This document shows, piece by piece, positions 10,468 to 32,816 of a stretch of DNA of 39,670 nt; position 1 is the stretch's first letter; each line of letters begins with the position of its first letter. Location of the stretch: positions 1-39,670 of IMG/VR virus record IMGVR_UViG_649989947_000012, one strand, 5' to 3'. The translations under genes were made by a program, and so were the position numbers. The notes beneath the pieces are model-generated. The model was not told the origin of the DNA. It did no database searches and worked only from the letters and a program-made list of their open reading frames with translations. The stretch comes from a virus. Lineage: Duplodnaviria > Heunggongvirae > Uroviricota > Caudoviricetes.

Positions 10468-12383
10468 ACCGCTACCCCCGCTTTCTGGATTGCTACCAAC
10501 AGATCAGCCAGGTGGCGAGCTGCGCCGTTAACCAGCTCTTCGTTTTCCTCAAAACGTCCGGCAGCCTGAAGGGCTGCAATCGCTTCCCGGACATTGCCCC
10601 GGGCGTTACGGATCTCCGCCATGTCAGTGCTTTGTATATCCATCACGTTATTGAGATATTCAATGGCTTTATTAGCCTCTGCATCTGCTTCGCTAACCGT
10701 TTCATCAGGCTGTGCCGGGGCCGGTTCTGGCTGAGTAATCTCACCGACTTCGGCCTGCAATGCATTGATCATGCTCTGCACCATTTTCTCGGTGCCAGCG
10801 CCACCCGGAAACGCAATATTGGGGAAAGTTTTTTGAAACTGAGTTTTCAGCATTACGCGGAACTCGTCTGGTGAGCTGGTGGCCTGCTCCAGAGCTTTTT
10901 GTGCATATTTGCCAAATGGACCATTAGTAAGTGTCTTCGCCAGGAAGTCGAAAGAATCCTCGCGAGGCAATAACTTCAGGTCGTACTCGCTCATTTGCTG
11001 ATCAGAAAGCGGGGTATCGTAAGTAGCAATGCCGTAGCGTGCATATTCATAATACGGGTCACCTTCATCAGGGCGTGGCAGAATTGCTTTGTTACCTTCA
11101 GGTATTGCGCCAGGGGCCGCCGGACGCATTTGCAGGGCATATCGATATGCACCTATAGAGACTTCTGGTTCAGGCGAAGAGCTACCGGTATCCTCCGCTG
11201 GTTCAGGTTCGACGTTTTCCGGTTTATGTTCTTCTGGTTGGACCAGGTATTCCGATACATTACCCGCTTTATAGGCTTTAAACAGCTTGCCGATCGCATC
11301 TGCCATGTCCACACCCTGTATGGATTTAGCCTTGATCATGTACACGCTGCCATCCGAATCGGTTAACTGGATATACCCTTCACCGTCCTCAATGAATTGC
11401 TTCATTGATGCACCATTACTGAGCGTCACTTCCCCGTTCATATGCATACGATTTTTGATACTTGCAAGGCGATCCGTCATCGCGCGAGAGTGTCCACCTG
11501 TCATCCCCGCAGGAGCAATGGTTTCGCGCCCACCAGTGCGATTGAGCTGATCAATCTCCGTCTGCAAACGCTCATTCTCTTCATAAAGAGAATCCGCTTC
11601 CGATGCAACAGCGTTAATTTTCTGCTCCAGATCTACCTTCTGCCCTTCTACCGCTGCCACCTGATCCGCGAGGTCGCTCATGGCATCCTCTTTCTGGTCA
11701 CTGTCAGCCTGTAGTTGGGTTATTTCATCAACCAGGGCTTTTTTCTTCTTCTGCGCACGCTGGAATTTTGCCGAGTTTTTCTCTGCAAGGTTGGCAAGTT
11801 TCATGGTGACCTGCGCCAGCGTCATATCACGTCCACTCATCGGAGCAACGGTGTGAGTAACGTCTTTTTTATTCAGTAAGAACTGGAAAGCAACCAGCGT
11901 ATCGCTATTGGTGATCCGGTTTTCCGCTGTCGGGCTATGAAACAGAATGCTGATAGTCTGACCATCACTGAGCGGAATAATGGCTGGCAGGACCGGCAGC
12001 CCGTTAACGTTACGTGCCCGGCCAATTTCAGCGCCGCCGATCGCGCGCGCGCCGCTCTGGGCCACATCCCCCGTTTTATCACTCCCCGCAGAGATTCCGG
12101 TACCATTCAGCTTCTGGTTCAATGCCCGGACAAATGCCTGCATGGTCCGGTGTAACTGCAAACGAGTAGAACTAATCGCCTCCAGTAAATCCGTAGCACA
12201 CCAGTGGATCGGCGTGTCATAGAAGAACGTAGCCTCGATTTCCTCCAGGGTGTTGGATTCCGTCATCAGATAGCGGTCCTCACCGGCCATTAATGCGCGA
12301 TATTCATCATCAGTCACTGGCGGGGGAAGCACGTCAAGCCCAGGCTTGATCGTCACCCCTTTATTGATATTGAACTGTTCCAT
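10464..12383 (-). CDS. darA: DarA-like antirestriction protein (639 aa)
   Basis: Size and operon position; central coiled-coil region; shares a segment (NSAKFQ…) with the upstream 203-aa Hdf-like protein. Confidence 0.5.
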   Translation of the reverse strand: MEQFNINKGVTIKPGLDVLPPPVTDDEYRALMAGEDRYLMTESNTLEEIEATFFYDTPIHWCATDLLEAISSTRLQLHRTMQAFVRALNQKLNGTGISAGSDKTGDVAQSGARAIGGAEIGRARNVNGLPVLPAIIPLSDGQTISILFHSPTAENRITNSDTLVAFQFLLNKKDVTHTVAPMSGRDMTLAQVTMKLANLAEKNSAKFQRAQKKKKALVDEITQLQADSDQKEDAMSDLADQVAAVEGQKVDLEQKINAVASEADSLYEENERLQTEIDQLNRTGGRETIAPAGMTGGHSRAMTDRLASIKNRMHMNGEVTLSNGASMKQFIEDGEGYIQLTDSDGSVYMIKAKSIQGVDMADAIGKLFKAYKAGNVSEYLVQPEEHKPENVEPEPAEDTGSSSPEPEVSIGAYRYALQMRPAAPGAIPEGNKAILPRPDEGDPYYEYARYGIATYDTPLSDQQMSEYDLKLLPREDSFDFLAKTLTNGPFGKYAQKALEQATSSPDEFRVMLKTQFQKTFPNIAFPGGAGTEKMVQSMINALQAEVGEITQPEPAPAQPDETVSEADAEANKAIEYLNNVMDIQSTDMAEIRNARGNVREAIAALQAAGRFEENEELVNGAARHLADLLVAIQKAGVAV

Positions 12384-17930: not shown

Positions 17931-18495
17931 CGTCCGGCGCTGTGCTGGTATCTGTTGCCGTCACCGCGTCAATGTAATCCAGCACAGTGTTAAGTCGGGT
18001 GTTTTCTGGCTGCGTCAGCTTCCGCTCAGCCTGTAATTTCAGTTGAATCAGACTGATGGAAGCCATTGCAGCATCAATCAGCGACTGGCGCTGTGCTTCT
18101 GCCGCTTCTACTGCGGCGCTATGCTGTGCCTCGGTATCCGTCACCCATTTCTCACCATCCCATTTATCGTATGGCGTTAACGGTGAAAGCGTGACATAAC
18201 CGTCTTTGATGGCACCGATATAATCCACTGTAACAGCTGCGCCATTTTCAGTTGAGTAAACGGTCTCATTGCGATGGTCTTCTTCATGGCTCCATCCCTT
18301 ACCCGTAAATACTGCCACTTTTCCCGGAATGTTTTCGCCCGGGTCAATACCAGTGGAACAGGCGGGTATACTTACGCCAGTATTAATATATTCATCAGAC
18401 CAGTCGGTATATTCATACGTTACTGCATTATAATAAAAACAACGCATATCGCCCGGCACTGTAGCCAGCCCATTTTCATCAAAAACAGGTTTCAT
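17902..18495 (-). CDS. tail-fibre assembly protein, currently expressed copy (197 aa)
   Basis: Tfa-like C-terminus (LNTVLDYIDAVTATDTSTAPDVIWPELPEA); lies immediately after the fibre gene and overlaps the other tfa tail-to-tail. Confidence 0.7.
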   Translation of the reverse strand: MKPVFDENGLATVPGDMRCFYYNAVTYEYTDWSDEYINTGVSIPACSTGIDPGENIPGKVAVFTGKGWSHEEDHRNETVYSTENGAAVTVDYIGAIKDGYVTLSPLTPYDKWDGEKWVTDTEAQHSAAVEAAEAQRQSLIDAAMASISLIQLKLQAERKLTQPENTRLNTVLDYIDAVTATDTSTAPDVIWPELPEA

Positions 18496-20897
18496 TATTT
18501 AGCCCTCACCAGAAAGTTAAATGCAATATTTCGTGGACGGGTTTCTGTACCTACATGTCCACTAATTTCACCATAACGTTTAACACTACGAGAGCTAAGA
18601 GCTCGTAGTGAGGAAGGCACCCTAAGACCGGGTTCGTCCGTTTTAACTATTCCCCCGTCACCATATGTAGCCAGTATTCCTGGGTTTACTCCTTCCCGTG
18701 CACTTCCTGCAGCAAGCCCGTCCCCCGTCCACAATTCCATATTGTGTGCATGATCCATAATTGTGTGTGATTGCCCTGAAAGTAGGGTACGTCCGACATC
18801 AATCCCGCGCCCATCATCCCAGATACGAATGAAATCACCCCGTGCGTCAGGTAATGCTAGCGCCGGAAACACTTTCGCCAGCACAGGGTAATCAGTGGCA
18901 GAGAATTTCGCGCCGTTGAACTTCAAAAACACCATACTGGACCAACTGTCGATTACAGTATTTGGCATTGCGGCGGACGGCCAGAAGAACGGAACGCCAA
19001 TAGCTGGAGCACCTTCTCCCAAACCAAGGTAATCAAGAACTCCCTGAGTGCTGGTTTTACCAAGAATGGTACGTCCAACACTTGTCAACGCGGTTAACGC
19101 GGCACGATCTGCCCCTGTAAAATATGGGAGTTTATCTGCTGATGTAGCAAGCTCTGCCAGCGCCGTCAGGGTGGCATCCTTCGGTTGCTTACCCGCAAGC
19201 GCGTTAGTCATGGTGGTCGCAAAATTCGGGTCATTGCCCAGCGCTGCAGCCAGTTCGTTCAGCGTGTTCAGTGCATCAGGTGACGAATCTACAAGTGCGG
19301 CAATCGCAGCCATAACGAAAGCCGTGCTTGCGATCTGGGTACTATTAGTCCCCTGTGGCGCTGTTGGTGTTGTTGGCGTTCCGGTCAGTGCCGGGCTGTT
19401 TAATGGTGCTTTCTTGTTCGTTTCATCCATTACTGCCTTAACAGCGTTTGGTGTCGCTGCCAGCGTTTCAGACGTGCTGTTCGTGGCGCTACTGAGCTGA
19501 ACAATCCCTTTTTGTGTAGTGGTGGCGTTCTGGGCGGTATATTTCCCGTTAGCCAGGTCATATGCAGCCTTGACAGCTTTCGGTGTGGCGGCCAGCACTT
19601 CAGACGTGCTGTTAGTGGCACTACTGAGCTGAGTGATGCCTTTCGCTGTCAATGAAGCTGTTGGCACACCAGTGATCTGATTCCAGGGATGTGTATGACT
19701 GGATGGTGCCTTTCCGGCTGCTAGATCGTATGCAGCTTTAACCGCTTTTGGCGTTGCAGCTAATGTTTCAGAAGTGCTGTTGGTGTCGCTACTGAGCTGA
19801 ACTATCCCTTTTTGTGTCGTGGTTGCATCCTGGGCTGTATACTTCCCGTTAGCCAGGTCATATGCAGCCTTGACAGCTTTCGGTGTGGCGGCCAGCACTT
19901 CAGACGTGCTGTTAGTGGCACTACTGAGCTGAGTGATGCCTTTCGCTGTCAATGAAGCTGTTGGCACACCAGTGATCTGATTCCAGGGATGTGTATGACT
20001 GGATGGTGCCTTTCCGGCTGCTAGATCGTATGCAGCTTTAACCGCTTTTGGCGTTGCAGCTAATGTTTCAGAAGTGCTGTTGGTGTCGCTACTGAGCTGA
20101 ACTATCCCTTTTTGTGTCGTGGTTGCATCCTGGGCTGTATACTTCCCGTTAGCCAGGTCATATGCAGCCTTGACAGCTTTCGGTGTGGCGGCCAGCACTT
20201 CGGACGTACTGTTAGTGGCACTACTGAGCTGAACTAATCCCTTTTGCGTTGTGCTTGCATCCTGCGCCGTATACTTGCTTTTCGCCAGATCGTAGGCTTT
20301 TTTAACTGCCAGCGAACTCGCAGCAACATCACTTCTGGTACTGGTTACAGAGTCTGAAATATCAATGCCGATCGTGCGGTTGATACGCTCGGATGTATCA
20401 ATCATCTCTTGAGTAATGGTAGATACGCCAGCAGGGATATTCACCGTACAAACCAGCAGTTCCCCATCACCTAACTGATATGAATCGGTATAGGTTCTGG
20501 CAACAAATTCAGCTGCATGAATATGTGACGCGGTATTCACCTGATAGGTATCTTCTCCAAGAAGGTATCTTCCCTTCAGCACAATTGCATATTTCTTGCC
20601 TGCGTTAAGTGCAAGAGAGATATCCTTACGATGCTGAATAGTTACCTGGTAGAATTCACCAATATCCACTGACGCCGCGCCAGCGGTTTTATCTCCATCC
20701 ACTGAGGTGATTAACAGGTTCATCCCACCGCCAGGCTTAGGCAAGAAACCAGCATAAAATCCCGGGTCAACAATTCCCCTGAATTTTCGGTTTAGAGCGG
20801 CTGACAGATATGGTTCGTGGTATTGCACATCAGCCACCAGAGCCAACGACTCGGGTGATGGGTAAGTAACCGATGTAACAACTGTAACGTCATTCAT
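18495..20897 (-). CDS. tail-fibre protein (about 800 aa) with internal 100-aa tandem repeats
   Basis: Start chosen at the internal Met (MNDVTVVTSV) just after the upstream gene; repeated ATNSTSEVLAATPKAVKAAYDLANGKYTAQD units; crossover site at 19014-19039 splits constant and variable parts. Confidence 0.8.
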   Translation of the reverse strand: MNDVTVVTSVTYPSPESLALVADVQYHEPYLSAALNRKFRGIVDPGFYAGFLPKPGGGMNLLITSVDGDKTAGAASVDIGEFYQVTIQHRKDISLALNAGKKYAIVLKGRYLLGEDTYQVNTASHIHAAEFVARTYTDSYQLGDGELLVCTVNIPAGVSTITQEMIDTSERINRTIGIDISDSVTSTRSDVAASSLAVKKAYDLAKSKYTAQDASTTQKGLVQLSSATNSTSEVLAATPKAVKAAYDLANGKYTAQDATTTQKGIVQLSSDTNSTSETLAATPKAVKAAYDLAAGKAPSSHTHPWNQITGVPTASLTAKGITQLSSATNSTSEVLAATPKAVKAAYDLANGKYTAQDATTTQKGIVQLSSDTNSTSETLAATPKAVKAAYDLAAGKAPSSHTHPWNQITGVPTASLTAKGITQLSSATNSTSEVLAATPKAVKAAYDLANGKYTAQNATTTQKGIVQLSSATNSTSETLAATPNAVKAVMDETNKKAPLNSPALTGTPTTPTAPQGTNSTQIASTAFVMAAIAALVDSSPDALNTLNELAAALGNDPNFATTMTNALAGKQPKDATLTALAELATSADKLPYFTGADRAALTALTSVGRTILGKTSTQGVLDYLGLGEGAPAIGVPFFWPSAAMPNTVIDSWSSMVFLKFNGAKFSATDYPVLAKVFPALALPDARGDFIRIWDDGRGIDVGRTLLSGQSHTIMDHAHNMELWTGDGLAAGSAREGVNPGILATYGDGGIVKTDEPGLRVPSSLRALSSRSVKRYGEISGHVGTETRPRNIAFNFLVRAK
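19014..19039. other. cix/gix/hix-like 26-bp inversion crossover site inside the fibre gene
   Basis: TTCTCCCAAACC-AA-GGTAATCAAGAA, close to the hix/gix pattern TTCTnnnAAACC-nn-GGTTTnnnAGAA (from memory). Confidence 0.55.
19490..20240. repeat. direct tandem repeats of about 300 bp, roughly 2.5 copies, within the fibre gene
   Basis: Sequence from about 19501 to 19800 is repeated nearly identically at 19801-20100 and again from 20101. Confidence 0.8.
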
Positions 20898-20908
20898 CAA
20901 GCATATCC

Positions 20909-21343
20909 TTATGCTGTAGTCGAGTTTATGGCCATAACTGCGGTATATGTTTTGCCCACATACAGCGAGTCTTCCTGGACACAAATAATGGCGATTGGCT
21001 TATTCTCGTTATCCAGAACAACCAGAGTGTTGAATGGGTAGTTTTTCCCTTCCTGCAACTGACTTTGATCAAGGTCCATTCGGACAGTAATTATCCCGCC
21101 TGAGTAGGTTGGGACGAGGTTGATGGTGCAAAATTGACTGGTCAGTTCTGCCAGATCGAAAGCCTTTGGCAGTTCTCCAATCTCATAAGTGCCATCTCCT
21201 TTCTTAGTAACCAGTGAACTGGTACCGAAAACGGCCTTGCTGATTAAAAATCGAGAGCCTTTGTTAATGGACGATTCAGCGCGCCGCTGATAGTAATAGT
21301 CCAACAACTGACTCTTATAGAGGTTTGTTGAGACGTCAGACAT
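20909..21343 (-). CDS. tail-fibre-associated structural protein (144 aa)
   Basis: Position between baseplate genes and the fibre gene; no specific motif recognised. Confidence 0.35.
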   Translation of the reverse strand: MSDVSTNLYKSQLLDYYYQRRAESSINKGSRFLISKAVFGTSSLVTKKGDGTYEIGELPKAFDLAELTSQFCTINLVPTYSGGIITVRMDLDQSQLQEGKNYPFNTLVVLDNENKPIAIICVQEDSLYVGKTYTAVMAINSTTA

Positions 21344-24047: not shown

Positions 24048-27000
24048 TCAACTCTCGCGTAGTCATTCATCAACGGATCATCAATTGACAGTGGTACCGT
24101 GCGCATAACGCCCGGCTGAGGCGTGCTGACCTTTACGACAGTTCCCTGGCCTTTCGCCGAGTCTTTGGTGTGCTCTTCAATCCTGGCAAGCAATGAGGTC
24201 ATCTGCGCAAACAGCCGCTTCGTTTCACCATCAAGTGAAACGGTATTATCAGCCAACTGCATTGTCGGCTTGGCACCGGAACCGCCAAGGTCACTAATAA
24301 CCTGCCCGTCTATCTGCATACGACCGGTTGGTTGCTGCAAATCGTTGGCGGCAGTCGTCACCTGGGACGTGGAGGCTGGTTCAGGCGCATTATTTTTCCG
24401 CATCCCCGGCGAGTTGCGGAGTTTATCGAATAGTCCATCAATCCCCATTTGTGCGCCGAGATGGTCAAAGTAACTTGAGTTGTTGGCCACCGGACGCGCC
24501 TCTTCAACTGGCATCGGAGTATCAACATACACATTGCCAGCTGCTGTTGCGGTCCCCTTCTCTCGTGCACGTTCTTCTAGCGTTCCCTGAACGACTTCCC
24601 GACGCATCCCCCGGCCATTCATGAATTTGTTGACCAGATCGTTAACGCCAACAGCATTGCCGATTTTGTCGACCAGACCGCCTTTCTCAAACGGGCTATC
24701 ACCAGGGGTAAACGCCAGGCCAGTATACTGATCGATAACAGCGTTATCAGGCAGTGGTCCCCTCACTCCATATTGCGCCCCACCCTGTGCTCCTGCTCCA
24801 GGTGTATAGATTTCACCACCTAAATAGCGAGCACGATGAGTATTGACCTTGATCGCGTACTCACGGTTTTCTTTCGATAAGTCACCGGTGCCTTTTTTCC
24901 ACTTATTAATAGTGCCAAACCCAGCATTATATGCAGTGATGGCCTCGTTTAAGTCTCCATTGGCTTGCTTAAGATACTTGCTCATGAGAAGAGCCGCAGC
25001 TTCTGCCGATTTCACAGGATCAAACGATTCACCTTCAGCTAAGCCAGTCTCTTCACGAGCAATCCCCGTGAACTGAAACATCCCCAGAGCACCGGTTTGG
25101 GATTTTGCATACGGATTACCACCAGATTCAGTTGCAGCAATCGCGTAAAGAGTGCCTTCTGGAAGACCGTATTTATTCTCTAGTTCGGCAAAATACGGAG
25201 CCAACTTATCGAGATTTGCCTTACCTTCAGCGCCAAGACTTCCGACTTTTACATCTAAGTTGCCATTGTTGTAAGTATCCGCAGCTTTCTGAATGTCATT
25301 CCTGGTGCCAGTGGTATTAAGCGACGATGATGACGAGCTATTTTGACCAATAGCTTTATCAATTTTCTGCAACGCGCTATTGCCCGTTTCTACGGCATTT
25401 GCATTGATAATCTGATTGGCAGTTTGTTTAACTGTTTTATTGCTATCTTTCGCTGTGTCCAGTGCCGCATTTATCACGCGGGTAGCAATATTACTCTGTT
25501 TGGCATCGGATTCAGTTTTAGAATCAGACGTCTCCTGGTGGCTATTAACCGGAGCTTTTAACTCCGGAGTGATTTCTTTCGCATTAGCCTCGCCGATCGG
25601 ATTGGGTATTTTTGATACAATCATTGCCGCAGGGGTATTTTTAACGGCATCAACCGCTGCATCTAATGCTTTACCAGGTAAATTTTTAACCCCATCCCAA
25701 ATATTACCAGCCGCCTCTTTAATGTGTTTCCCTGGGTTCTTAATGAAATCAATTGCACTATCAATTGCATCACTGAAAACCTGTTTCAGGTTATCAACAG
25801 TAAAGAAGTCTTTGATGGCATCCAGCTTTTCAAGCAGCTTATTAGATGTATCGCTAAACCATGCTGAAACAGCATCACCAATCTTTGCTGTGTAATCTTC
25901 GAACTTGGTAGAAATGGTGTCGCCAAGGTTAGAAATATATGTTTCTAAGTTGGTAATCCCACTATCAATGGCCTGGGCAATACTTTCCGTCGAAAATGAT
26001 TGCAACATATTGCCGATATCCTCAAATCCAAGTGATTTGAGAACCTCACCAATGGCGCTGCTAATACCAGATACCAGTCCCCCCATATCAAGAACATTGG
26101 CTAACGTATAAGCGGCTTTTTGCTGGAATGATGGCTCTTGTCCTGATTTAAGCCCAAACGCTCGACGTTGCGCTTCTGTATCATTCCAACCGGTTACCGC
26201 ATCATAAATACCTCCAGCCACTGTGCCGACTAAGGGAATTGCGCGTAACGCCCCTTTACCAACTGCCTTTAATCCAAATTTACCTGCTGCCCGGGCAGCC
26301 AAATCTCCACCTTCATGGGCGATAGTCTTCTTGCCACCACCGCGTAGCATTCCTACAAGTTTCTTTGCCCCCAGAGCGCCAAAAGCGAGTGCTCCAGCTT
26401 TTTTCAGCATGCCACGCCCCATTAACAACGACGCGACGCCACCGGCCCCCTTCCCTAACAGGCTAAATAGTTTGGACAGCAAGCCGCCCTTCTTTTTCCC
26501 GGTGTTTTTGGCTATCTGATCAAGGGCGCTGAGAATCTTGTCATTGCCCTCTTTAATTTCGCTGGTCTGCTCCTGAAGTTCCTGAACCGTCCGTTTTTGG
26601 GTGTTAACCTGAACGACATCGGCACTATTTTGCGATTTACGCCTAAAAAAACCTTTTCTACGGCTGTTATCGTCATTGCCACGAATCACATCGGCAATAG
26701 ACTTTCTGGCGCCATTAAGCGATCCACCAACTTCTTTTGATATCCCGCCAAGCTCCTTCCCTGCTGCCCACAATGGACCAGCAACGGCATAACCTAACGC
26801 ATCGACGGCACGAGTCTCTGAAGGGTTACCTATGCCTTCAGCTACTTTTGACAGTTTTTTTAATAAACCTGATTCAGCATTTAGACGCTCATCATCCTCT
26901 TTGCGCCTGGCCTTTTCAGCACGTTCAGCACGGGCATCTTCCGCTGCGGCCTTACTCCCTGACTTTCCAATAAAACGACCACGCGCATCGCGTTGGTTTT

Positions 27001-27733
27001 GGCTTTTTTGCGCACCGCCTTTTTGATCGAACATTTCGCGAGCGTGTTCGGCTGCTTCGGTCCGTTGTGCCTTTATATCCTCTGATATAGCCTTCCTGCG
27101 TCTTTTTTTACCCTTTGGTGTAGTTGATTTGGCCTGCTGTTCCTGTTGAGCAATGCCCTCCTGAACTACACGAGAAACGTCCCCTAAATTAAGCCGTTTC
27201 ATTGCGTCAACAATAGGGTCTACTGATGGCGCATTGGCCACAAAGTCTGGCCGGGAATTTTCGATTGTTCGATTTAATGCCGACACACTGCGAGATACTG
27301 GGTCAACCGTTGCAACGCGTTCCCCTTTCAAATCACGAGCGAGTTTGACCGTTTCTAACCGCTGTGCTTTAACATCCTCTGTTATTGCCTCTCTTCGTCT
27401 ATTTGGGGGATTGTGCGCTGTTGGTGCAGCCTGCTGTTCACGGTTAGTGACTTTGTCCTCCCGTATACGAGAAACGTCCCCTAAATTAAGCCGTTTCATT
27501 GCGTCAACAATAGAGTCCACTGATGGCACATTGGTCACAAAGTCAGGACGTGAATTTTCGATTGTGCGATTTAATGCCGACACACTGCGAGAGACAGGAT
27601 CAACAGTTGCAACTCGTTCCCCTTTCAAATCTTCAACAGCTTCCCGAATACCTGCAAGCTCTTCCAGCTCTTTCGCGCTGGCGGTTTCAACTGTCCTTAT
27701 AACATCGTCAATATTGGCGTTTTTTCTTTCCAT
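24044..27733 (-). CDS. sit: tail tape measure / injection protein with lytic transglycosylase domain (Sit-like, 1229 aa)
   Basis: Soluble lytic transglycosylase motif (ESGGNPYAKSQTGALGMFQF…AYNAG), Gly-rich transmembrane-like middle region, coiled-coil N-terminus with an internal duplication. Confidence 0.8.
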   Translation of the reverse strand: MERKNANIDDVIRTVETASAKELEELAGIREAVEDLKGERVATVDPVSRSVSALNRTIENSRPDFVTNVPSVDSIVDAMKRLNLGDVSRIREDKVTNREQQAAPTAHNPPNRRREAITEDVKAQRLETVKLARDLKGERVATVDPVSRSVSALNRTIENSRPDFVANAPSVDPIVDAMKRLNLGDVSRVVQEGIAQQEQQAKSTTPKGKKRRRKAISEDIKAQRTEAAEHAREMFDQKGGAQKSQNQRDARGRFIGKSGSKAAAEDARAERAEKARRKEDDERLNAESGLLKKLSKVAEGIGNPSETRAVDALGYAVAGPLWAAGKELGGISKEVGGSLNGARKSIADVIRGNDDNSRRKGFFRRKSQNSADVVQVNTQKRTVQELQEQTSEIKEGNDKILSALDQIAKNTGKKKGGLLSKLFSLLGKGAGGVASLLMGRGMLKKAGALAFGALGAKKLVGMLRGGGKKTIAHEGGDLAARAAGKFGLKAVGKGALRAIPLVGTVAGGIYDAVTGWNDTEAQRRAFGLKSGQEPSFQQKAAYTLANVLDMGGLVSGISSAIGEVLKSLGFEDIGNMLQSFSTESIAQAIDSGITNLETYISNLGDTISTKFEDYTAKIGDAVSAWFSDTSNKLLEKLDAIKDFFTVDNLKQVFSDAIDSAIDFIKNPGKHIKEAAGNIWDGVKNLPGKALDAAVDAVKNTPAAMIVSKIPNPIGEANAKEITPELKAPVNSHQETSDSKTESDAKQSNIATRVINAALDTAKDSNKTVKQTANQIINANAVETGNSALQKIDKAIGQNSSSSSSLNTTGTRNDIQKAADTYNNGNLDVKVGSLGAEGKANLDKLAPYFAELENKYGLPEGTLYAIAATESGGNPYAKSQTGALGMFQFTGIAREETGLAEGESFDPVKSAEAAALLMSKYLKQANGDLNEAITAYNAGFGTINKWKKGTGDLSKENREYAIKVNTHRARYLGGEIYTPGAGAQGGAQYGVRGPLPDNAVIDQYTGLAFTPGDSPFEKGGLVDKIGNAVGVNDLVNKFMNGRGMRREVVQGTLEERAREKGTATAAGNVYVDTPMPVEEARPVANNSSYFDHLGAQMGIDGLFDKLRNSPGMRKNNAPEPASTSQVTTAANDLQQPTGRMQIDGQVISDLGGSGAKPTMQLADNTVSLDGETKRLFAQMTSLLARIEEHTKDSAKGQGTVVKVSTPQPGVMRTVPLSIDDPLMNDYARVD

Positions 27734-29332: not shown

Positions 29333-29923
<591 letters not shown>

Positions 29924-29957
29924 TTAACCGATTCTACGAGTAGTCATTTGTGACAGG

Positions 29958-30434
29958 TTATTTTGCGCGCTTCAGGCAGCCATCTTCAGGTGCCGCGTTG
30001 AAAAGCTCTGCGGCCTTACGTAGCGTAAATGTTGCGATTTTTTTTCCGTCTACGTATGCATCGAATGTTTTAACTTCCATATCAGGGGTATCTGACCAAA
30101 AACCATACCAGTAACTATCACCCACAGAGGAACCGATAGAACTGATAGGATATTCATCATCACCAACTTTCAGCGTTATTTGTTCTTTTTTAGCATCAAA
30201 TGACTCACCGCCAGGTTCTGTTTTCATGAGAGTGAGTAGTCGTGTTCCTACTTGATTGGGATCCGTATTATTAAATCCAACATCGCACTCAAATGTAAGC
30301 GTATAATTATCTTTGCTGGAAACAGCATAAGAGCGAACGCCATGAGTCTCGCTGGTGGACCATTTGCTTACATTTGCCATTGATGAAAACGGAGTAAGCA
30401 AAGCAAGAATTAGAAAATATCGTTTGATGCGCAT
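29958..30434 (-). CDS. secreted protein with N-terminal signal peptide (158 aa)
   Basis: MRIKRYFLILALLTPFSSMANV signal-like N-terminus; lies in the sim-equivalent position. Confidence 0.4.
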   Translation of the reverse strand: MRIKRYFLILALLTPFSSMANVSKWSTSETHGVRSYAVSSKDNYTLTFECDVGFNNTDPNQVGTRLLTLMKTEPGGESFDAKKEQITLKVGDDEYPISSIGSSVGDSYWYGFWSDTPDMEVKTFDAYVDGKKIATFTLRKAAELFNAAPEDGCLKRAK

Positions 30435-30485
30435 TAATTTATCTCCTTTGGATATTAATATTTTAATTAGTTAACCACCATATAT

Positions 30486-31133
30486 TCACCATTCATAGGG
30501 TAAATTAAGCGCTTTTAAACCTTGCTGGAAAGTATTAAGAGAGCCGTTTTTTTGTTGTTCCATTTTTTCGCGTGCAGCTTTCTCATACTGCTCCATCCGT
30601 TGGTTATACTCTTGCAATTCCTCCGGGGAGAGGTTTCCCATTGGGGAGTTTGTACCCGGCCCCCTGGCCCGTTCTTCAAGCGTACCCTGAACGTTTTGAT
30701 GGCGCATTCCCGGGGCGTTTCTGATTGAATCAATGCCATTTCTTCCAACGTCTTCTTTATTAACGGCATTGCTCGCCACCAGTACGCCCCAGCTAGGGAT
30801 AGCAAAATCAGGAGCGGTTTCGCATGCCTTTACCATATAATCGAAAGAGCTTCGATTGATCTCGTTTGCGTCGGGATTTAATAGGCGAGAATATTGATAT
30901 TTAGCATTTTCGTTGGTTGCGACTTTATACAGTTCTTGCTGCACCATCGCTTCAGAAAGTTTAAGGCGTTTCATATCTGATAGTAACTTCTTGCGCATGG
31001 ATTCGTCTTGACTGACAGCAAAACCGTAAACGTGCCCAAGGTATTTCGTATAATCGGTACAAATCTCCTTTACGCTTGATGCTGCATTAACAGTCCCAGC
31101 CATAAATAATAACGGTAGTAATAGTTTTCTCAT
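30486..31133 (-). CDS. Sim-like periplasmic superinfection-exclusion protein precursor
   Basis: Signal peptide MRKLLLPLLFMAGTVNAASS from the internal ATG with a GGTGAGG ribosome-binding site; shares a PGMR…VQGTLEERAR motif with the tape measure. Confidence 0.5.
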   Translation of the reverse strand: MRKLLLPLLFMAGTVNAASSVKEICTDYTKYLGHVYGFAVSQDESMRKKLLSDMKRLKLSEAMVQQELYKVATNENAKYQYSRLLNPDANEINRSSFDYMVKACETAPDFAIPSWGVLVASNAVNKEDVGRNGIDSIRNAPGMRHQNVQGTLEERARGPGTNSPMGNLSPEELQEYNQRMEQYEKAAREKMEQQKNGSLNTFQQGLKALNLPYEW

Positions 31134-31229
31134 TATAACCTCACCTGCCTTATAACTCATTTAGGGTACATATTTTCGCCTTTAAAAAAAAGAGGTTATT
31201 AGATCCAATTGTGTATTTATTAAGCATAT

Positions 31230-31246
31230 AATGCTCTAATAAATTT
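31230..31246 (+). promoter_or_regulatory. C1-operator-like 17-mer AATGCTCTAATAAATTT
   Basis: One mismatch to the consensus; lies upstream of the icd-ant operon and is followed by TTTTAAGT. Confidence 0.4.
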
Positions 31247-31560
31247 GTATTTTTAAGTCGCGAATGCTATCTTTTCGCATCATGTTGACCTTTTAATCGT
31301 TCAGGCTTATAGTTCCGCCGTCGTAGCAAATTCTGCGACCGGGTTTAGCAGCCTGAATGATTGTGCGGACAGCCGCAGATATCCGATATTGCGGTATTTT
31401 TGTGTCCGTAAAACCGCGTTACGCCCAAATTATGGTGGGGCGTGATGGGGAGGCTTCGGCCTGCTGGTTTCACAATCGCCAGTCTGCTAACCCCGTCACG
31501 TCCTGCCACCTGTTTAGCAGCGGGTAGCAGGTTGTTAAACCTGATTGTGAGGCCGTAACT

Positions 31561-31782
31561 ATGGTTAATGCCAATCCTTGCGCACGCCAAGAATTCATCT
31601 GGCGTTTCTATTCCTGTAAAAAACACCACTATCACTTCGTTATCGCAGCAACTGAAGACGAAGCACGCTCTCAATTGCCTGATGGCCCCTGCATTTTTAC
31701 TGCCCGTTTTTCAACTAACTCGCGCAATTCACTTAGTTACTGGAACCTCCCCTTCTCTGCCGACGTTCAGGGGGTTTTATGA
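31561..31782 (+). CDS. icd: Icd-like small protein (73 aa) overlapping the ant start
   Basis: 73-codon ORF ending 4 nt into ant, matching the P1 immunity-I arrangement (from memory). Confidence 0.45.
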   Translation: MVNANPCARQEFIWRFYSCKKHHYHFVIAATEDEARSQLPDGPCIFTARFSTNSRNSLSYWNLPFSADVQGVL

Positions 31783-32816
31783 AAAAACCTCTCGTCACCC
31801 GTAATGACATAGCCGAAGCGATCGCCCTGCATACTGCCTGTATGCCGACACGGGAGATCCCCGGCGCAATTGCCAACTATTTCATGATAACCAGACGTTT
31901 TTATACCCGAACAGATAAGGCTGTGATCAACAGGCTACTGATAGCCGAGATCAGGGATTATTTGATTGAACAAGGACGTCTACGTTACGCAACAGTGGCA
32001 GCAGAAATGAGAAAGGAGGCACATATAATGACCGGTAATAATTTGAATGTTGAAAAACCAGCACCTGTTACGTCAGCTACGCCAGCACCAGCCGTGAATA
32101 TTATCCCCAACACCGGAGACACAATCGACAGCCTGACACTGTTAAAGATGGTCAATGAAGCGCGTAAGTTATGTGGGGAACCAGAGGTTCGGAACAACAA
32201 ATTCATCGAAAAAATACTCGATGAGCTTGATGGTGAGCACTACACAAAAAGTGTAGTGGAAAAAATGAACAAAACATCAATGCTTGTCATAACCATGACT
32301 TTCAAACAAGCCCTGCGAGTCGCCGCGCGCGAGTCAAAAGCGGTCCGCCGTTCGCTGATCGACAAACTGGAAGAATTACAGCAGGCAAACTCCCCTACCC
32401 CATCGATCCCCCAGACATTACCAGAAGCCCTACGCCTGGCTGCCGAGTTAGCAGAACAGAAAATGCAGTTGGAACAACAGCTGGTGGCCGCAGCCCCTAA
32501 AGTCGATTTTGCCGACCGGGTATCAGTGGCCAATGGAATCCTGATCGGGAACTTTGCAAAGGTCGTTGGACTTAAGCAAAACGCTCTTTTCTCATGGTTG
32601 CGCCAGAATGGCATTCTCATGGCTTTTGGAGCGCGCAAAAACGTACCGCGCCAACAGTACATCAACGCCGGGTATTTCACTGTGAAAGAAGTGGTGCTGG
32701 ATGATGAAAATGGCTACCAGATACGGCTGACGCCCCAATTAACGGGTAAAGGCCAGCAGTGGTTAACTCGCAAGCTACTTGATGCTGGTTTGTTAAAACC
32801 AGTAGCAATAGGTTAA
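31779..32816 (+). CDS. ant: antirepressor (Ant-like, 345 aa)
   Basis: C-terminal domain (SLPEALRLAAELAEQK…GKGQQWL) repeated in the downstream KilA-like protein; internal in-frame Met (MTGNNLNV) could give a shorter form. Confidence 0.6.
   Translation: MKKPLVTRNDIAEAIALHTACMPTREIPGAIANYFMITRRFYTRTDKAVINRLLIAEIRDYLIEQGRLRYATVAAEMRKEAHIMTGNNLNVEKPAPVTSATPAPAVNIIPNTGDTIDSLTLLKMVNEARKLCGEPEVRNNKFIEKILDELDGEHYTKSVVEKMNKTSMLVITMTFKQALRVAARESKAVRRSLIDKLEELQQANSPTPSIPQTLPEALRLAAELAEQKMQLEQQLVAAAPKVDFADRVSVANGILIGNFAKVVGLKQNALFSWLRQNGILMAFGARKNVPRQQYINAGYFTVKEVVLDDENGYQIRLTPQLTGKGQQWLTRKLLDAGLLKPVAIG

Follow-up and report, generated by a model that had tools for sequence, protein, structure and literature searches.

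A full-length SimA protein of P1-like phages shares a short module with the tape measure protein Sit

The superimmunity (sim) locus of P1-like phages raises the question of whether a secreted protein encoded there carries a piece of the phage's own tape measure, and whether such a piece could serve to exclude superinfecting phages. We addressed this in a 39,670-nucleotide stretch of viral DNA (IMG/VR record IMGVR_UViG_649989947_000012, positions 1 to 39,670), which is referred to here as the window and is that of a P1-like phage of the genus Punavirus. On its minus strand the tail genes S, R, 16, bplA and pmgA are followed by sit, pmgB, tub and pmgC (29333-29899), beyond which lie two small minus-strand ORFs, a full-length simA gene (its product is termed SimA-long) and ORF158, and then, on the plus strand, the immI region with icd/ant (ant1, 31779-32816). 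In the nearest phage record for this region, vB_EcoM-Ro157c2YLVW (98.2% identical), both small ORFs carry the annotation 'hypothetical protein'. In the translation of tail fibre gene S (18495-20984, minus strand) there are also several near-identical internal repeats (TQKGIVQLSS.TNSTSE.LAATPKAVKAAYDLA). Coordinates of the features that bear on the question are collected in Table 1.

Table 1. Positions of sim locus and tape measure features in the window
Feature	Position	Strand	Basis
sit, tape measure / structural injection transglycosylase, 1229 aa	24044..27733	-	
SLT lytic transglycosylase domain, Sit residues 847-956	24866..25195	-	PF01464, E=3e-27
Sit repeat 1, residues 1018-1067, GGLVDKIGNAVGVNDLVNKFMNGRGMRREVVQGTLEERAREKGTATAAGN	24533..24682	-	BLASTP, hhalign
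Sit repeat 2, residues 1092-1115, LGAQMGIDGLFDKLRNSPGMRKNN	24389..24460	-	BLASTP
Variable sim cassette	29950..30997	-	P1 identity breaks at simA codon ~45, returns just upstream of LPsit
ORF158, second secreted protein, signal peptide and two invariant Cys	29958..30434	-	phrog_3429 / PF27224
Full-length simA (SimA-long, 215 aa)	30486..31133	-	ORF list; family phrog_3933; NCBI name 'simA domain protein'
C-terminal long helix of SimA-long, residues 170-208	30510..30626	-	AlphaFold2
Tape-measure-like module of SimA-long, residues 125-167, NKEDVGRNGIDSIRNAPGMRHQNVQGTLEERARGPGTNSPMGN; core NAPGMRHQ at 30696-30719	30633..30761	-	BLASTP, PHROG, hhalign
Conserved helical N-terminal domain of SimA-long, residues ~18-130, invariant Cys25 and Cys104	30744..31082	-	
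simA 5' end and upstream control region	30994..31300	-	95% identical to P1
Predicted Sec signal peptide of SimA-long, MRKLLLPLLFMAGTVNA followed by A, residues 1-17, end VNA-A	31083..31133	-	Read from sequence

The sim genes form one of eight hypervariable regions in P1-like phage-plasmids (PMC9603915). In the window, identity to P1 extends from the control region, where P1 has the predicted promoter PsimA together with the C1 operator Oc4, into simA, and is found again directly after ORF158, ahead of the late promoter LPsit, and therefore the intervening cassette of ~1.05 kb, formed of the 3' part of the SimA-long gene and ORF158, stands in place of simB and simC of P1 (locus L001, 2230-3520). 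The gene itself lies in the sim locus. P1 SimA itself (YP_006513, 52 aa, 'putative superimmunity accessory function') is encoded at the same locus, and its first 45 residues and upstream DNA are ~95-100% identical to those of the window, but it ends 7 residues past the recombination junction and is without the N-terminal domain, the module and the tail. The 52-aa simA of P1 is therefore best read as a truncated 5' remnant of a full-length gene, in which case nothing known of P1 Sim would transfer to SimA-long, and because the P1 protein is without the module, the likeness between SimA and Sit is invisible in P1.

A second comparison is with the P1 Sim protein, SimC, a 264-aa secreted precursor which is likewise periplasmic and prophage-encoded, and whose gene has the same cassette position between immI and LPsit. 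Later papers (PMC8546580, PMC9177967) cite Kliem & Dreiseikelmann 1989 for the report that P1 Sim causes superinfection exclusion and is thought to bar superinfecting DNA from the cytoplasm. However, SimC has no sequence similarity to SimA-long (best BLASTP E=29), belongs to another PHROG family (phrog_14355) and carries no tape-measure motif. Neither SimA-long nor ORF158 showed homology to SimC or SimB, both of which fall in other PHROG families. The description of the protein as 'Sim-like' must thus be dropped with regard to SimC, the exclusion protein of P1 that was defined by experiment, the sole link to Sim being the first 45 residues of P1 SimA.

SimA-long is a member of the SimA family: it matches phrog_3933 along residues 1-215 (E=4e-137), its gene opens the sim cassette, beside c4/icd/ant, as is usual for the family, and both the signal peptide and the two invariant cysteines are present. 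An alternative in-frame ATG upstream, at 31160, would give a protein of 224 aa; the ATG at 31133 is preceded at 7 nt by a good Shine-Dalgarno sequence (GGTGAGG), and homologues begin at the equivalent methionine. No lipobox cysteine is present in the signal peptide. Cys25 and Cys104 fit a periplasmic disulfide, and the N-terminal domain is probably disulfide-bonded. Taken with the signal peptide, this cysteine pair predicts that SimA-long is an exported periplasmic protein, which together with the Shine-Dalgarno sequence bears out the earlier description of the product as secreted.

AlphaFold2 modelling with the family alignment placed residues 20-130 in an all-helical domain with high confidence (pLDDT >90), and gave low confidence for residues 1-15 (pLDDT <50) and for residues 131-168 (pLDDT ~46), which include the module and contain only one short helix, at 152-157. 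Judged from this model, the module probably sits in a disordered and accessible linker. The C-terminal tail is variable, and other members of the SimA family replace it or lack it. No phosphatase neighbours were found for the all-helical model, and a match to PTP-like phytase (PF14566) was discarded, as it scored 26.4 bits against a Pfam gathering cut-off of 27 and covered only part of the profile. Searching solved structures by sequence with the SimA family profile gave a single marginal and non-significant match (9flp_A, E=0.014, 18.7 bits), and NCBIfam yielded nothing useful. Likewise, the defence models of PADLOC-DB 2.0 gave no match to SimA-long, ORF158, SimB or SimC (E<=0.1).

ORF158 is the usual partner downstream of SimA-long and is found in most lineages, with homologues of 157-168 aa and a very conserved C-terminus (APEDGCLKRAK). 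Its predicted fold is a beta-rich orphan (AlphaFold2), and no significant neighbours of the model were found in the PDB. The exception is one P1-like lineage (locus L044, 9974-11451), where a full-length SimA of 221 aa is followed by a 260-aa SimC-like secreted protein in place of ORF158, and therefore SimA-long and SimC are not strictly alternative.

We then come to the shared module itself, which spans 36-46 residues of SimA-long and Sit. The two peptides named in the original prediction, IDSIRNAPGMRHQNVQGTLEERARGPG in SimA-long (residues 134-160; 30654-30734, minus strand) and NKFMNGRGMRREVVQGTLEERAREKG in Sit (residues 1035-1060; 24554-24631), were found where it had placed them, as was a second Sit copy, LRNSPGMRK (residues 1105-1113; 24395-24421). 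Alignment of SimA-long and Sit by BLASTP gave 22 identical residues out of 47 (39.3 bits, E=1e-7), with the second Sit copy also matched (E=0.019). The Smith-Waterman score was 93, compared with a shuffle mean of 41-42 (sd ~6) and a maximum of 70-76; this score was reached by none of 2000 shuffles, 1000 of either protein (Gumbel P 3-8e-6). At the level of families, SimA-long residues 129-171 match positions 929-972 (of 1130) of the Sit family phrog_2533 (E=8e-8), and reciprocally the Sit C-terminus matches phrog_3933 (E=2e-7), the PHROG profiles having been built independently. Furthermore, hhalign of the two family alignments aligned 36 columns with a probability of 95.8% (E=7.6e-9). The agreement of SimA-long is closer with Sit from divergent P1-like phages than with the Sit of its own genome, at 61% identity over 46 aa (E=6e-11, locus L049), and the strings that SimA-long and the divergent Sit have in common include APGMRHQ.VQGTL.ERA.G.GT..PMGN.

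The match is short, at 36-47 residues, and as such might be put down to chance or low-complexity similarity without common ancestry; this is ruled out by the shuffle, profile and hhalign statistics, and the stronger match to a heterologous Sit also speaks against it, leaving it a vanishingly small likelihood. We are close to certain, from these alignments, that the module is homologous between SimA-long and Sit, and the proposal of shared ancestry over a short module is supported. SimA-long shares the module with the phrog_2533 tape measure family but is not a member of it, since membership entails a long helical ruler, an SLT domain and a C-terminal anchor (PLSIDDPLMN), whereas SimA-long has no SLT domain and matches the Sit family profile only at residues 129-171.

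The original prediction had also described the underlying DNA as similar. This holds for one 48-nt stretch with 77% identity (30667-30714 versus 24567-24614, E=1.3e-5), but the similarity is weak and old, with no sign of a recent copy. Among the 38 aligned codons, 12 of the 18 identical residues use different synonymous codons, and therefore the copies separated long ago and it is the peptide that is conserved. Because most shared residues differ in codon, recent copying of DNA and gene conversion involving sit and simA were both rejected.

How widely the module is kept was assessed across both families. We identified 28 homologues of SimA-long, with identities of 48-100%, and the family as aligned is 44-100% identical. 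Full-length SimA proteins, of 179-246 aa, are carried by Escherichia, Salmonella, Klebsiella and Shigella elements of ~90 kb, and among PLSDB plasmids with the simA 5' end, 84 of 267 (about one third) have the full-length type of the window. A tblastn search of PLSDB for SimA in more distant P1-like elements found it only in the same four genera. At least 90% of family members have N139, G142 and R144, and the core N-[AS]-[PR]-G-M-R-[HQ]-Q is nearly invariant, with indels in the linker ahead of it. After GMR[HQ]Q there are two patterns, either a Sit-like V.GTLE.RARG.G or unrelated tails that contain cysteine, so that about half of the variants have the N[AS][PR]GMR[HQ]Q core only, without the VQGTLEERARG half. 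Some variants stop a few residues past the module (ERARGPGVAP followed by the stop), and therefore the N-terminal domain and module form the minimal conserved unit. We read the module as old and as maintained in SimA and Sit proteins alike through selection that acts on the peptide, because codons differ between the two copies and N139, G142 and R144 are kept amid linker indels and swapped tails.

Mosaicism is concentrated in the sim cassette, where recombination junctions fall directly after GMRHQ. A third type of cassette was seen at loci L028, L031 and L033 (~10580-12260), in which SimA has 163 aa and ends right after the module. This type also encodes an ORF158-like secreted protein of 168 aa and, in addition, an ORF of 357-394 aa that has no signal peptide. 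The mosaic structure of the cassette would fit a reading in which a tape-measure fragment was captured when simA formed and was kept for an unrelated use, such as a protease site or the linker of a lysogenic-conversion protein, with no effect on superinfection. That no defence model matched, and that P1 manages without an intact simA, would agree with such a use. However, N..GMR stays nearly invariant although indels surround it and synonymous sites are saturated, which a mere linker would not do, and the same residues are conserved in distant tape measures; we consider this reading unlikely.

Sit is the tape measure of P1 and provides the only muralytic domain of the virion (PMC9024508), and although not resolved in cryo-EM maps of P1, it is represented by low-resolution density within the baseplate hub region (PMC12810830). 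In the protein the two repeats come just after the SLT domain, between it and the C-terminal anchor. For contractile tails in general, the baseplate holds the C-terminal part of the tape measure, which is the first to be expelled into the periplasm. By analogy, the Sit repeat region would be the part that is exposed to the periplasm or inner membrane when injection begins.

P1-type Sit proteins contain two copies of the repeat, KFMNGRGMRREVVQGTLEERARG and either KLRNSPGMRKNN or KLINARGMRSNN, and the Salmonella/Klebsiella type contains one. When the last 272 residues of Sit were compared by phmmer with 1.84 billion representative proteins, 16 representatives were found, and therefore the Sit C-terminal family is small. 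Its distant members, from Pantoea, Chimaeribacter, Nissabacter, Leclercia and a Citrobacter plasmid, are 24-40% identical in this region, and all have an element of the form LGGDKLRxAEG[ML]RHQ, often twice and 75-80 aa apart. The element LRNA[PE]G[ML]RHQ is thus present once or twice per tape measure even in homologues of ~30% identity (for example EQLGGDKLRTAEGMRHQ / DNLGGDKLRDAEGMRHQ; KKLGGDKVRNAEGLRHQ; VVDKLGGDLIRNAEGNRHQ / EYGGDKIANAEGLRHQ; ARNAPGMRHQVATGSMADRAYG), and the extreme C-terminal anchor aside, no other conserved feature of this region is as easily recognised. A search of solved structures by sequence with the Sit C-terminus gave no match.

The consensus of these elements, GMRHQ, is the form found in SimA, and the GMRRE and GMRKN of P1-type Sit are, by this comparison, the derived form. 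In the Citrobacter element the repeats are present and SimA is absent, with an unrelated gene at that place. Because the element is kept in distant tape measures, and because the Citrobacter element has it without SimA, the module probably originated in the tape measure, with SimA having acquired one repeat unit. On this view the repeat is an ancient element with a function in Sit. Within genomes, no convincing co-variation of the SimA and Sit motifs was seen among the few distinct lineages available.

Sit also differs between relatives outside its repeats. Near the N-terminus there is a direct duplication (27123-27334 and 27420-27631, minus strand), with 212-nt copies that are 84% identical and 297 nt (99 codons) apart; it was detected using a direct-repeat finder, with Tandem Repeats Finder finding nothing in sit. 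The protein has 1229 aa in the window compared with 1140 aa in P1, and 1020-1271 aa among related loci, and these duplication and length differences could mean tail-length variants. Furthermore, when Sit of P0034, P0037, P0060 and P0061 was compared with that of P0031, P0035 and the window, the C-terminal repeats were nearly identical and the SLT region existed in two clearly different versions, which suggests module exchange inside the tape-measure gene.

Given these properties, what could the module do in SimA-long? With the protein in the periplasm and the motif on a flexible linker, SimA-long would be well placed to compete for a partner of the Sit repeat. During injection by a P1-like phage, the Sit repeat would engage this partner, which may belong to the host or be another of the ejected phage proteins, within the periplasm or at the inner membrane. 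SimA-long, already in the periplasm of the lysogen and displaying the same motif, would occupy the partner, the channel for DNA entry would then fail to form, and superinfection exclusion would result. That SimA-long excludes superinfecting phages by such mimicry of the Sit repeat is a possibility that we put forward tentatively, because the Sit repeats would be exposed to the periplasm, SimA-long is predicted to be periplasmic and the cassette replaces simB-simC. The fuller version, in which the prophage captured a repeat of its own tape measure and displays it in the periplasm as a decoy that blocks injection by related phages, is more doubtful.

Several observations count for mimicry, namely that the cassette takes the exact place of P1 simB-simC, that one lineage pairs SimA-long with a SimC-like protein and that full-length SimA is common among PLSDB plasmids. 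Against it count the lack of a PADLOC match, the variants without the second half of the module and the lack of convincing SimA-Sit co-variation. In addition, the Sit repeat could serve tail assembly in the cytoplasm, which would make a periplasmic mimic irrelevant.

Two other readings retain an effect on injection and assign a different task to the motif. In the first, the motif serves as an address tag through which both proteins reach one site in the envelope, for instance peptidoglycan or an inner-membrane complex, and the N-terminal domain is the effector, which, possibly with ORF158, might inhibit the Sit transglycosylase or plug the entry site; here the motif would bring SimA-long to its target and not compete. 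The N-terminal domain is indeed the best conserved and most confidently folded part of SimA-long, ORF158 is a conserved secreted partner in most lineages, and the motif directly follows the SLT domain in Sit. We judge this arrangement improbable, both as a shared address and in its particular of an N-terminal effector.

The second is that SimA-long acts as a poison subunit. If it is through the repeats that Sit contacts itself, or ejected tail proteins such as the hub gp6, the spike gp5/UpfC or UpfB, then SimA-long would bind the incoming machinery directly and no host factor would be needed. Conservation of the motif in tape measures from several enterobacterial genera fits a partner internal to the phage as well as it fits a host partner, and the low-resolution Sit density in the baseplate hub region (PMC12810830) is consistent with contacts of this kind. 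However, the corresponding region is predicted to be disordered in SimA-long, and we regard a poison subunit as very unlikely.

Were the mimicry reading to be true, SimA-long would join a small set of proteins that act on genome entry. HK97 gp15, Ltp of Streptococcus phage TP-J34 and T4 Imm and Sp all reportedly exclude at the injection step. These are envelope proteins encoded by phages or prophages (T4 being virulent) which stop genome entry after adsorption, in some cases via the tape measure or tail lysozyme, but they have no homology to SimA-long, and to our knowledge none carries a piece of a tape measure. A different parallel is motif 3 of the mycobacteriophage TM4 Tmp (PMC1796659), which resembles Rpf and is thus a small tape-measure motif that is like secreted host proteins. 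This is also a short tape-measure segment held in common with secreted envelope proteins, and acts in infection and not in length measurement. However, the TM4 motif is like a peptidoglycan hydrolase, is shared with host proteins and promotes infection, whereas the SimA module is a non-enzymatic repeat, is found in a prophage protein and probably opposes infection. A literature search, which did not cover the P1 genome paper (Lobocka 2004), found no account of SimA and Sit resembling each other, none of the full-length SimA and no exclusion protein described as a tape-measure mimic.

If mimicry is the function of the module, SimA-long would be the first exclusion protein shown to act as a tape-measure decoy, and this would represent a new mechanism of superinfection exclusion. 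The NAPGMRHQ motif would then mark a periplasmic or inner-membrane contact on which DNA entry by P1-like phages depends. Because the motif occurs both in tape measures of enterobacterial P1-like elements and in a prophage protein that is secreted, a specific contact with a function in the passage of P1 DNA is indicated, and one that is open to mutation, to use as bait and to challenge by a natural competitor. A classic locus can also be re-read, with P1 simA as the remnant of a larger gene and the hypervariable sim cassette as a site where alternative secreted proteins are swapped. Should the mimicry reading be true, it would also bear on how P1-like phage-plasmids, which spread resistance genes, compete with one another.
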